Below, piece after piece: positions 2,901 through 11,443 of a stretch of DNA of 64,000 bases (position 1 is its first letter; the number at the start of each line of letters is the position of its first letter). Both the position numbers and the translations under genes were made by a program. The notes under the pieces are model-generated. The model was not told the origin of the DNA. It saw nothing but the letters and a program-made list of their open reading frames with translations, and searched no databases. The stretch comes from Escherichia coli (GTDB lineage Bacteria; Pseudomonadota; Gammaproteobacteria; Enterobacterales; Enterobacteriaceae), in the NCBI RefSeq assembly GCF_003334815.1, contig NZ_QOWO01000007.1; one strand, 5' to 3'.

Positions 2901-2995
2901 TAAAAAAATAGAGTCTGTCGACATCCGCCAGACTCTACAGTACACACAGCAGTGCATCCGCGTCTTAAATCCGGCATTGTCTCCTCTGCGCCGGT
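2901..2995 (-). ncRNA. mcaS: McaS (IsrA) small regulatory RNA
   Basis: Reverse complement reads ACCGGCGCAGAGGAGACAATGCCGGATTTAAGACGCGGATGCACT... and ends in hairpin AGAGTCTGGCGGATGTCGACAGACTCT plus T7; lies in abgR-smrA spacer as in K-12. Confidence 0.75.
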
Positions 2996-5039: not shown

Positions 5040-5272
5040 TGAGATCCCGTTATTTTTATCAATTTTTGTTGCTATCCGATCGCAAAAAAGCCACGTCATA
5101 TGATCAGATAATTCTGATAATGATAGACGCTATTTAACACTTCACACGGTTTGTATACGGAAAAGCATTTTGCTTTTTGTATTCAATTTAGACAGAATTT
5201 TATTAATCATTTCAGGGTAATGGGGTGATGAGATGTTGCGTAACAGGGCCAGAAGGCTAGACTACAAAATAA

Positions 5273-6277
<1,005 letters not shown>

Positions 6278-6323
6278 CAAAAGCAATTTTTCCGGCTGTC
6301 TGTATACAAAAACGCCGCAAAGT

Positions 6324-6337
6324 TTGAGCGAAGTCAA
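6324..6337 (+). promoter_or_regulatory. FNR box (TTGAG-N4-GTCAA) centred about -42 from FnrS 5' end
   Basis: Near-consensus TTGAT-N4-ATCAA half-sites at class II activation distance from the sRNA start. Confidence 0.6.
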
Positions 6338-6372
6338 TAAACTCTCTACCCATTCAGGGCAATATCTCTCTT

Positions 6373-6494
6373 GCAGGTGAATGCAACGTCAAGCGATGGG
6401 CGTTGCGCTCCATATTGTCTTACTTCCTTTTTTGAATTACTGCATAGCACAATTGATTCGTACGACGCCGACTTTGATGAGTCGGCTTTTTTTT
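6373..6494 (+). ncRNA. fnrS: FnrS small RNA
   Basis: Sequence GCAGGTGAATGCAACGTCAAGCGATGGGCG...GCCGACTTTGATGAGTCGGC plus T8 terminator; zntB-dbpA spacer as in K-12. Confidence 0.85.
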
Positions 6495-6551
6495 GCCTGT
6501 TATTTATCAGCGTCTACCCTTTAAGAGTCCACCCAATGACCAGAGGGAAAT

Positions 6552-6725
6552 ATGACGACACTTATTTATTTGCAAATTCCTGTCCCTGAACCGATTCCTG
6601 GCGATCCTGTTCCAGTGCCCGATCCGATCCCTCGCCCGCAACCCATGCCTGACCCACCACCCGATGAAGAACCGATTAAATTGTCGCATCGTGAGCGTAG
6701 ATCTGCGAGGATACGCGCCTGCTAA
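6552..6725 (+). CDS. candidate 57-aa proline-rich small protein (MTTLIYLQIPVPEPIPGDPVPVPDPIPRPQPMPDPPPDEEPIKLSHRERRSARIRAC)
   Basis: ATG with GAGGG 5 nt upstream; intact frame to TAA; below ORF-track length cutoff; function unknown. Confidence 0.4.
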   Translation: MTTLIYLQIPVPEPIPGDPVPVPDPIPRPQPMPDPPPDEEPIKLSHRERRSARIRAC

Positions 6726-6754: not shown

Positions 6755-8128
6755 GTGACCGCTTTTTCTACCCTGAATGTTTTGCCTCCCGCCCAACTCA
6801 CGAACCTTAATGAGTTGGGTTATTTAACCATGACGCCGGTGCAGGCCGCCGCGCTTCCGGCGATCCTTGCCGGAAAAGATGTTCGCGTGCAGGCGAAAAC
6901 CGGCAGCGGCAAAACGGCGGCTTTTGGCCTCGGCTTGTTACAGCAAATTGATGCGTCGCTATTTCAAACCCAGGCTTTAGTGCTGTGTCCTACGCGTGAA
7001 CTGGCGGATCAGGTGGCAGGTGAATTGCGTCGGCTGGCGCGTTTTCTGCCAAATACCAAAATTTTGACGTTGTGCGGTGGTCAACCGTTCGGTATGCAGC
7101 GTGATTCGTTGCAACATGCGCCGCATATTATCGTGGCAACGCCGGGGCGTTTGCTGGATCACCTGCAAAAAGGCACGGTATCACTGGATGCGTTGAATAC
7201 GCTGGTGATGGATGAGGCCGACCGCATGCTGGATATGGGATTTAGCGATGCCATTGATGATGTCATCCGTTTTGCGCCTGCATCTCGACAGACGCTTCTG
7301 TTTTCGGCAACCTGGCCGGAAGCCATCGCTGCAATCAGCGGACGAGTGCAACGCGATCCTTTGGCGATTGAAATTGACTCAACAGATGCTTTGCCACCCA
7401 TTGAACAACAATTTTATGAGACATCCAGCAAAGGCAAAATTCCTCTGTTGCAACGGTTATTAAGCTTGCATCAGCCATCCTCTTGCGTGGTGTTTTGCAA
7501 TACCAAAAAAGATTGCCAGGCTGTCTGCGACGCGCTGAATGAAGTAGGGCAAAGTGCATTGTCATTACACGGCGATTTGGAGCAACGCGATCGCGATCAG
7601 ACCCTGGTACGTTTTGCTAACGGTAGCGCCCGTGTACTGGTCGCGACTGATGTTGCTGCGCGTGGTCTGGATATTAAATCGCTTGAGCTGGTGGTGAACT
7701 TTGAGCTGGCGTGGGACCCTGAAGTTCATGTACATCGCATCGGTCGTACAGCTCGTGCAGGAAATAGCGGTCTGGCGATCAGTTTCTGTGCTCCGGAAGA
7801 AGCACAGCGGGCCAATATCATTTCTGACATGTTGCAGATAAAACTTAACTGGCAAACGCCGCCAGCTAATAGTTCCATTGCGACGCTGGAAGCAGAAATG
7901 GCAACGTTGTGTATCGATGGCGGGAAAAAAGCCAAAATGCGCCCGGGTGATGTATTAGGTGCACTGACAGGAGATATCGGGCTTGATGGCGCAGATATTG
8001 GCAAAATCGCCGTGCATCCGGCGCATGTCTATGTCGCGGTCCGTCAGGCTGTTGCTCATAAAGCATGGAAACAGTTACAGGGCGGGAAGATTAAAGGAAA
8101 AACGTGCCGGGTGCGGTTATTAAAATAA
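6755..8128 (+). CDS. dbpA: ATP-dependent RNA helicase DbpA (DEAD-box)
   Basis: 457 aa, GTG start; motifs AKTGSGKT and VMDEADRM. Confidence 0.9.
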   Translation: MTAFSTLNVLPPAQLTNLNELGYLTMTPVQAAALPAILAGKDVRVQAKTGSGKTAAFGLGLLQQIDASLFQTQALVLCPTRELADQVAGELRRLARFLPNTKILTLCGGQPFGMQRDSLQHAPHIIVATPGRLLDHLQKGTVSLDALNTLVMDEADRMLDMGFSDAIDDVIRFAPASRQTLLFSATWPEAIAAISGRVQRDPLAIEIDSTDALPPIEQQFYETSSKGKIPLLQRLLSLHQPSSCVVFCNTKKDCQAVCDALNEVGQSALSLHGDLEQRDRDQTLVRFANGSARVLVATDVAARGLDIKSLELVVNFELAWDPEVHVHRIGRTARAGNSGLAISFCAPEEAQRANIISDMLQIKLNWQTPPANSSIATLEAEMATLCIDGGKKAKMRPGDVLGALTGDIGLDGADIGKIAVHPAHVYVAVRQAVAHKAWKQLQGGKIKGKTCRVRLLK

Positions 8129-8256: not shown

Positions 8257-9192
8257 TTATTTCACTTCAACCACATTCAGCCGTAACTCATCCAACTGAT
8301 TTTCATCTTCTTCTGGCTGCCAGCACGCCGGTTGTAGTGGGATCTCTTCGCGATCAAACGCCAGATCACCCCCGTTAACCACTTCAGAACCGTGGGTGAT
8401 GCCTTTGAAATCGAACAGGTTGGTATCGCACAGATGCGACGGCACCACATTCTGCATCGCGCTGAACATCGTCTCGATACGCCCTGGATAACGTTTATCC
8501 CAGTCACGCAACATGTCAGCAATCACCTGACGTTGCAGGTTAGGCTGTGAACCGCACAGGTTGCACGGAATAATCGGGAACGCTTTTGCATCGGCAAATC
8601 GCTGAATATCTTTCTCGCGGCAGTAGGCCAGCGGACGAATAACGATATGTTTGCCATCATCGCTCATCAGTTTCGGAGGCATACCTTTCATCTTACCGCC
8701 GTAGAACATATTTAAGAACAACGTTTGCAGGATATCGTCACGATGGTGACCCAACGCGATCTTCGTCGCCCCCAGTTCCGTTGCGGTACGATAAAGGATA
8801 CCGCGACGAAGGCGAGAACACAGTGAGCAAGTGGTTTTGCCCTCTGGAATCTTCTCTTTCACGATACCGTAAGTATTCTCTTCAACAATCTTGTACTCAA
8901 CGCCCAGCTTTTCAAGATACTCGGGCAGAACGTGTTCCGGGAAGCCCGGTTGCTTTTGATCGAGGTTAACAGCCACCAGCGAAAAATTGATTGGCGCGCT
9001 TTGCTGCAAATTGCGCAGAATCTCCAGCATGGTATAGCTGTCTTTACCCCCGGAGAGGCAAACCATGATGCGATCGCCTTCTTCAATCATATTGAAGTCA
9101 GCAATGGCTTCGCCCACGTTACGACGCAGACGTTTTTGTAATTTGTTCAGGTTGTATTGTTCTTTCTTACTAATTTCTTGATTTTGCGACAT
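8257..9192 (-). CDS. ttcA: tRNA 2-thiocytidine(32) synthetase
   Basis: 311 aa; PP-loop SGGKDS and CxxC pairs; N-terminus [14 protein letters not shown]. Confidence 0.9.
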
Positions 9193-9341
9193 TTAAAAGC
9201 GACTCAATTCGTTATATGGCATCAGAAGAGTATGCGTCATGCCGGAACGCCCAGCATAAGAAATCTGATATAAAAAACTGTGGCGTGTATGGTACGGATT
9301 AGAGGGGAAAATGTCAGCACATTTGCGAAATGAATCAAAAA

Positions 9342-9361
9342 GCCCGCAGCAATGTGCGGGC
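9342..9361 (-). terminator. uspF intrinsic terminator
   Basis: On minus strand GCCCGCACATTGCTGCGGGC followed by TTTTTGATT, just downstream of uspF stop. Confidence 0.6.
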
Positions 9362-9368
9362 GTTAGTG

Positions 9369-9884
<516 letters not shown>

Positions 9885-11077: not shown

Positions 11078-11304
11078 TGAATAAATCCTTTAGTTATTTT
11101 ATTTGCCTTTTATCCCCATTTCGGGGAGTGAAAACATCCTAAAGGAGAAGTTCAGTTAGCCGATAAATATCATTTGTTACGCCTTAAGTAAAACCTTAAT
11201 CAAATAATTCCTCTGAAATGATAATAAGTCTGGTGAATGTATCGAAGATAATACATACAAAATAAAAATTATACTTTTAATTTGCTATACGTTATTCTGC
11301 GCGG

Positions 11305-11413
11305 GTTATATGCCTTTATTGTCACAGATTTTATTTTCTGTTGGGCCATTGCATTGCCACTGATTTTCCAACATATAAAAAGACAAGCCCGAACAGTCGT
11401 CCGGGCTTTTTTT
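11305..11413 (+). ncRNA. micC: MicC small RNA
   Basis: Sequence GTTATATGCCTTTATTGTCACAGATTTTATTTTCTGTTGGGCCATTGCATTGCC...AGCCCGAACAGTCGTCCGGGCT plus T9; ompN-ydbK spacer. Confidence 0.85.
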
Positions 11414-11443
11414 TTAGAATTGGATAATCCTTATCCAGAGCAT

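Follow-up and report, generated by a model that had tools for sequence, protein, structure and literature searches.

Does the spacer downstream of zntB in this stretch of Escherichia coli DNA encode the small RNA FnrS, and is the inverted repeat in front of it a class II binding site for FNR? The question arises from an earlier note, made from the letters alone, that recognized three small RNAs (sRNAs), FnrS, McaS and MicC, and placed the FNR half-sites at the canonical -41.5 position. The whole stretch that we have analysed, 64,000 nucleotides long and referred to below as the window, was placed on the E. coli chromosome by Megablast and is an ordinary stretch of it. The identity and structure of fnrS, the anatomy of its promoter and its conservation across species were established here from the DNA sequence itself.

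Identity and structure of fnrS

The 601 bases around fnrS are 100% identical to those of E. coli K-12 MG1655, and the fnrS region is found at an identity of at least 95% in 5393 of 5426 complete E. coli genomes. Based on the list of open reading frames and a collinear RefSeq genome, the gene order is abgB, abgA, abgR, [McaS], smrA, dgcM, ynaN, zntB, [FnrS], ynaL, dbpA, ttcA, uspF, ompN, [MicC] and nifJ/ydbK. FnrS thus lies in its conserved location, the spacer with zntB upstream and ynaL-dbpA downstream, as the earlier note had expected. The features at and around this spacer are the following.

5233-5280, plus strand: ynaN, an annotated small protein of 15 aa, just upstream of zntB
5294-6277: zntB
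6309-6312, plus strand: conserved A-tract, -64 to -61 of the fnrS promoter
6324-6337, plus strand: FNR box TTGAGCGAAGTCAA, half-sites TTGAG-CGAA-GTCAA, centre at 6330.5
6360-6365, plus strand: -10 hexamer CAATAT, -13 to -8 from the annotated +1
6373-6494, plus strand: FnrS sRNA, 122 nt, from the Rfam match and identity to K-12
6379-6410 (nt 7-38), plus strand: 5' stem-loop of FnrS, from folding and the Rfam structure
around 6416-6432, plus strand: single-stranded C/U-rich pairing region of FnrS, from the fold
6434-6459 (nt 62-87), plus strand: small hairpin of FnrS, from the fold
6467-6486 (nt 95-114), plus strand: terminator stem of FnrS, GC-rich, 8 bp, from the terminator scan and the fold
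6487-6494, plus strand: U8 tail of FnrS, a T8 run after the terminator stem
6552-6725, plus strand: ynaL, an annotated small protein of 57 aa, proline-rich (MTTLIYLQIPVPEPIPGDPVPVPDPIPRPQPMPDPPPDEEP...)
6755-8128: dbpA

The start of ynaL lies 58 nt past the FnrS terminator, and dbpA follows just downstream of ynaL.

The Rfam scan matched the FnrS model RF01796 over its full length (model positions 1-119 of 119) to 6373-6490 on the plus strand, scoring 134.8 bits (gathering score 60, E 4.4e-24). The interval 6373-6494, which the earlier note had given for FnrS, coincides exactly with the K-12 feature b4699 and matches it as a string over 122 of 122 nt. The K-12 locus has the same neighbours, the same FNR box and the same terminator; its intergenic region is identical at 274 of 274 positions, and within the locus itself there are no differences at all. 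It is virtually certain that the locus is the native E. coli fnrS, accompanied elsewhere in the window by mcaS, micC and rydC, and we found nothing substantive against this reading. The description of FnrS goes back to Durand & Storz 2010 and Boysen et al. 2010.

The RNA is closed by a Rho-independent terminator and its U-tail, a 3' module for which the literature supports binding by Hfq (PMC11572966). When 77 different FnrS sequences were aligned, the terminator helix showed compensatory changes across genera, with both sides altered in 31, 22 and 23 sequences at three adjacent pairs, and the 5' stem shows a few such changes too. The folding z-score of FnrS (minimum free energy) is a modest -1.67, and the identification therefore rests on homology and not on energy. 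Positions nt 43-53 are conserved, and this conservation was not imposed by the search that collected the sequences, whereas the invariance of nt 1-8 and 19-41 is in part a product of the search pattern and of the GCAGGTGA filter described below. The conserved segment includes the published pairing site C47-U49. The published FnrS pairing mutants are G4C/G5U, C47A-U48A-U49G and U57A-U58G-U59A (PMC8595263), and the mutated sites map in the window to 6376-6377 (G4/G5), 6419-6421 (C47, U48 and U49) and 6429-6431 (U57-59).

The program-made list of open reading frames does contain a frame across this interval (6371-6589, TTG start, 72 aa), which would suggest a small protein in place of a non-coding RNA. 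However, this frame passes straight through the canonical intrinsic terminator, is called as a gene in none of the annotation records that we compared, and is broken across genera by insertions and deletions of 1 and 2 nt (alignment columns 42, 57-59, 66-67, 87 and 95). The paired, compensatory changes in the helices likewise fit an RNA and not a reading frame. The one- and two-base indels rule the frame out, and we have rejected it; a coding function for the interval is scarcely conceivable, and FnrS as a non-coding RNA is the reading retained here.

A conserved FNR box upstream of fnrS

The half-sites TTGAG-N4-GTCAA are present at 6324-6337, as noted earlier, and the box matches the consensus TTGAT-N4-ATCAA at 8 of its 10 defined positions. 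Counting of motifs alone is weak evidence for such a box. By chance the exact pattern would occur 0.11 times per window, and 11 of 100 shuffles had one; sites that deviate from the FNR consensus at no more than two positions abound in the window (48 observed versus 37 ± 5.7 expected), which is not significant. Motif counting was therefore dropped as proof of the FNR box, and phylogenetic footprinting was used instead.

Loci were collected with a degenerate pattern taken from the FnrS 5' stem, using one genome per species. The search gave 118 loci with enough flanking DNA, 92 of which start with the FnrS 5' end GCAGGTGA; the other 26, which are chance matches to the search pattern in unrelated phyla, served as a negative control. 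The 92 FnrS loci represent many genera of the Enterobacterales, including Yersinia, Serratia, Erwinia, Pantoea, Dickeya, Pectobacterium, Photorhabdus, Edwardsiella, Hafnia and Arsenophonus. Counted from a +1 that in species other than E. coli is assigned by homology to K-12 and not mapped, the centre of the best FNR-like site lies at -42.5 in 90 of these loci and at -41.5 in the other two, with 7-9 of 10 positions matching. In the 26 control loci no FNR-like site occupies a fixed position, the best ones falling at 25 different places.

The columns T-48, G-47, T-39, C-38, A-37 and A-36 of the FNR box are invariant in 90 species. Pairwise identity averages 0.88 in the half-sites, compared with 0.39 in the region from -35 to -16 and 0.28 from -80 to -66. 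In each of the 92 loci, the centre of the box lies 29.5 bp from the first base of the -10 hexamer, and every hexamer has the form CAnnnT. Conservation of the box at a fixed spacing amid near-random flanks is a clean phylogenetic footprint.

Near the start, the footprint alignment has only four invariant positions, G-14, C-13, A-12 and T-8. The last three indicate that the -10 hexamer is CAnnnT, in which A2 and T6 are the essential bases. A hexamer one base further downstream, AATATC (-12 to -7), was also considered and rejected: different species would have different bases at its second position, whereas in CAnnnT both A2 and T6 remain invariant.

The region from -35 to -30 reads TAAACT, a poor element with three of six matches to TTGACA. 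A scan for sigma-70 consensus promoters found none at fnrS, a result that is uninformative as to whether a promoter is present. The poor -35 element and the lack of a consensus promoter fit a promoter that depends on an activator. Other class II FNR promoters, such as those of dmsA, narG, nirB and ydhY, likewise have an inverted repeat resembling TTGAT-N4-ATCAA over a weak -35 region. The fnrS half-sites differ from them in having G as the innermost base in place of the consensus T or A (TTGAG...GTCAA).

In K-12, FNR ChIP-seq gave a peak at fnrS, where Table 1 of Myers et al. 2013 lists the FNR site at -42.5 (PMC3688515), and the K-12 sequence under this peak is identical to that of the window. 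It could be argued that the box is a chance match and that fnrS is transcribed independently of it, and both the frequency of the exact pattern in shuffled DNA and the abundance of two-mismatch sites would favour such a view. Chance matching, however, does not account for a box whose spacing to the -10 hexamer is the same in all 92 species while its flanks are near-random, for the control loci without a site at any fixed position, or for the ChIP-seq peak on the identical K-12 sequence. These observations have effectively refuted chance matching, which we consider barely credible. The FNR box is real because of its position and its conservation, together with the published ChIP-seq, and not because of a motif count.

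Position of the box and activation of the promoter

The earlier note gave the position of the box as -41.5. From the annotated +1 (G6373) its centre is at -42.5, so that the number in the note was wrong by one base and the class was right: the range given by Myers et al. for class II sites is -41.5 ± 4 (PMC3688515), and the fnrS box, at -42.5 and overlapping the -35 region, is a class II activator site. The poor -35 under the box, the missing sigma-70 consensus, the ChIP-seq peak and the retention of the site in 92 of 92 species all bear out this call. The footprint is also a clean positive control for the scan, in which a reader of sequence only placed a transcription-factor site within one base.

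We place the box at -42.5 and not at -41.5 because the curated annotation starts at G6373. That this G is the +1 is also indicated by the Rfam model of FnrS, which begins there, by the names of the published mutants (G4C/G5U, C47-U49 and U57-59), which fit this numbering only (PMC8595263), and by Myers et al., who likewise give -42.5 (PMC3688515). The same four observations stand against the proposal that the RNA starts one base earlier, at T6372, and that the box is truly at -41.5. In favour of T6372, the 29.5 bp between the box and the hexamer equal the spacing of a -41.5 site with its hexamer at -12 to -7, two Yersinia loci that are one base shorter between the hexamer and the RNA 5' end have the box at -41.5, and the choice of start site can vary. 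On balance a start at T6372 is unlikely, and we retain G6373.

With the start at G6373, fnrS has the canonical spacing between box and -10 element of class II FNR promoters, but there are 7 nt and not 6 between the -10 hexamer and the start, which moves the centre of the box to -42.5 from the mapped +1. Relative to RNA polymerase, the box would therefore be in the canonical class II position, with the extra base lying between the -10 element and the start; measured from the -10 element, the geometry is the canonical -41.5. Between the hexamer and +1 there are 7 nt in 90 of the loci, and the two from Yersinia have 6.

The two exceptions are Yersinia aldovae and Yersinia artesiana, the only species of the 92 with 6 nt, in which the box is at -41.5 and the spacing from the box to the -10 hexamer is unchanged.

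The following sequence of events best accounts for this arrangement. Under anaerobic conditions, the [4Fe-4S] FNR dimer would bind TTGAGCGAAGTCAA at 6324-6337, overlapping the poor -35 region, and, acting as a class II activator, would recruit or activate sigma-70 RNA polymerase at CAATAT (6360-6365). Transcription would then run from G6373 to the GC hairpin and U8 tail (6467-6494) and yield the 122-nt FnrS. Together with Hfq, FnrS would pair with mRNAs that the cell can do without in anaerobiosis, including sodB, maeA, gpmA, cydDC, iscR and others, contacting them close to their ribosome-binding sites through the 5' end and the single-stranded C/U-rich stretch of the sRNA. Such pairing would block translation and lower the mRNA levels, and the FNR regulon would in this way be extended from activation to repression. 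FnrS has been described as being under FNR control, made on the switch to anaerobiosis and repressing multiple genes, and iscR mRNA as being bound by it with the help of Hfq (PMC11572966). The pairing takes place in the 5' regions of mRNAs such as iscR and likely blocks ribosome access. For the window, FNR occupancy, anaerobic induction, Hfq dependence and the targets are taken from literature on the identical K-12 sequence. The geometry of the contact between FNR and RNA polymerase is what we infer, as is the possible role of the upstream A-tract.

This A-tract is conserved at -64 to -61: of 90 distinct upstream sequences, 88% have A at -63 and 96% have A at -62, and the full AAAA occurs at the same offset from the FNR box in 50 of the 92 loci. 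G-14 (position 6359), next to the -10 hexamer, is invariant in some 90 species of Enterobacterales. The DNA surrounding these two features has drifted close to randomness, and the FNR box and the -10 hexamer leave both unexplained. We suggest, quite tentatively and from conservation of the sequence, that the A-tract might be a UP-like docking site for the C-terminal domain of the RNA polymerase alpha subunit upstream of FNR, and that G-14 might provide a contact by the -10 element. If this were true, the two together might account for the strength and tightness of PfnrS as an anaerobic promoter. PfnrS is in use as a hypoxia-inducible promoter and is a routine part in engineered probiotics, E. 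coli Nissle among them (PMC12005768).

Other small RNAs and strain differences in the window

Three further sRNAs of E. coli are found in the window.

2902-2995, minus strand: McaS (IsrA), 94 nt, between abgR and smrA, 94 of 94 nt identical to K-12 b4426
11305-11415, plus strand: MicC, 111 nt, between ompN and ydbK/nifJ, 111 of 111 nt identical to K-12 b4427
62770-62834, minus strand: RydC, 65 nt, between cybB and ydcA, 65 of 65 nt identical to K-12 b4597

All three gave full-length Rfam matches above the gathering scores. McaS (RF00115) was matched at 2995-2900 on the minus strand with 118.4 bits (gathering score 42), MicC (RF00121) at 11302-11422 on the plus strand with 125 bits (gathering score 90), and RydC (RF00505) at 62834-62771 on the minus strand over the full model with 92.5 bits (gathering score 48). 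An Rfam scan had been proposed in the earlier note as the check on FnrS, McaS and MicC, and all three assignments withstood it, including the spacers abgR-smrA for McaS and ompN-ydbK(nifJ) for MicC. Only the ends of two intervals needed correction: McaS, given as 2901-2995 on the minus strand, ran 1 nt too far into the U-tract of its terminator (the K-12 match is to 2902), and MicC, given as 11305-11413, had the correct 5' end and stopped 2 nt short in the U-tract at the 3' end (the K-12 match is to 11415). Differences of 1-2 nt within terminator U-tracts are immaterial.

RydC was missing from the earlier note and is the fourth known sRNA in the window.

McaS folds into three hairpins, including the terminator, followed by U7, and MicC ends in a terminator hairpin plus U9 according to both the terminator scan and the fold. 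The minimum-free-energy z-score of RydC is -0.48. The known pseudoknot of this RNA cannot be represented in the folding used. Single-sequence folding z-scores of the sRNAs are weak throughout (-0.48 to -2.30), and folding energies were for this reason not taken as functional evidence; structure alone would not identify these RNAs. All defining features of the four sRNA families that are open to testing in silico are present. In K-12, McaS/IsrA (b4426), MicC (b4427) and RydC (b4597) have the same sequence and synteny, with no differences detected, and the intergenic regions of mcaS, fnrS and micC are all 100% identical between the two genomes. McaS regulates csgD, flhDC and pgaA and titrates CsrA, MicC represses ompC, and RydC activates cfa.

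The earlier note called these RNAs known elements, and their exact identity to curated K-12 ncRNA features leaves no doubt of it: the loci of FnrS, McaS, MicC and RydC are already known and fully described, and nothing sets them apart from the K-12 originals. The scientific weight of finding these four textbook Hfq-dependent sRNAs of E. coli is small. Their value lies in annotation. The curated record NC_000913.3 annotates mcaS, fnrS, micC and rydC as ncRNA features; the features of mcaS, fnrS and micC are absent from the PGAP RefSeq records NZ_CP032667.1 and NZ_CP028748.1, in which the DNA is identical to the window. The expectation that annotation based on open reading frames often misses sRNAs is borne out by these two records. 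Pipelines resting on such PGAP records would leave the sRNA spacers empty, and an Rfam pass recovers all four.

The window differs from K-12 at other loci. In K-12 the cryptic Rac prophage (23 kb) is located at the end of ttcA, between ttcA and uspF. The window does not contain Rac, and ttcA (8257-9192) is followed directly by uspF (9369-9803), the junction being at 9192-9369. The ydbA region (39576-45344) is likewise without IS2D and IS30C, which in K-12 split ydbA into a pseudogene. The first 2.5 kb of this region are about 98% identical to K-12 and contain internal repeats that are about 89-90% identical.

A permissive Rfam scan of the window (E up to 0.1) revealed no further RNAs beyond a sok-like match at 63394-63552 on the minus strand, which is sub-threshold at 40.1 bits (gathering score 59). 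This match falls in the hokB/mokB/sokB toxin-antitoxin locus at 63394-64000, where collinearity with K-12 ends at 63472, inside sokB. From about 63473 to the end of the window the sequence is that of an IS150 end (TGTACTGACCCCAAAAAGTTGGACAG...), which indicates that an IS150 insertion breaks up the sokB/hokB locus of this strain.
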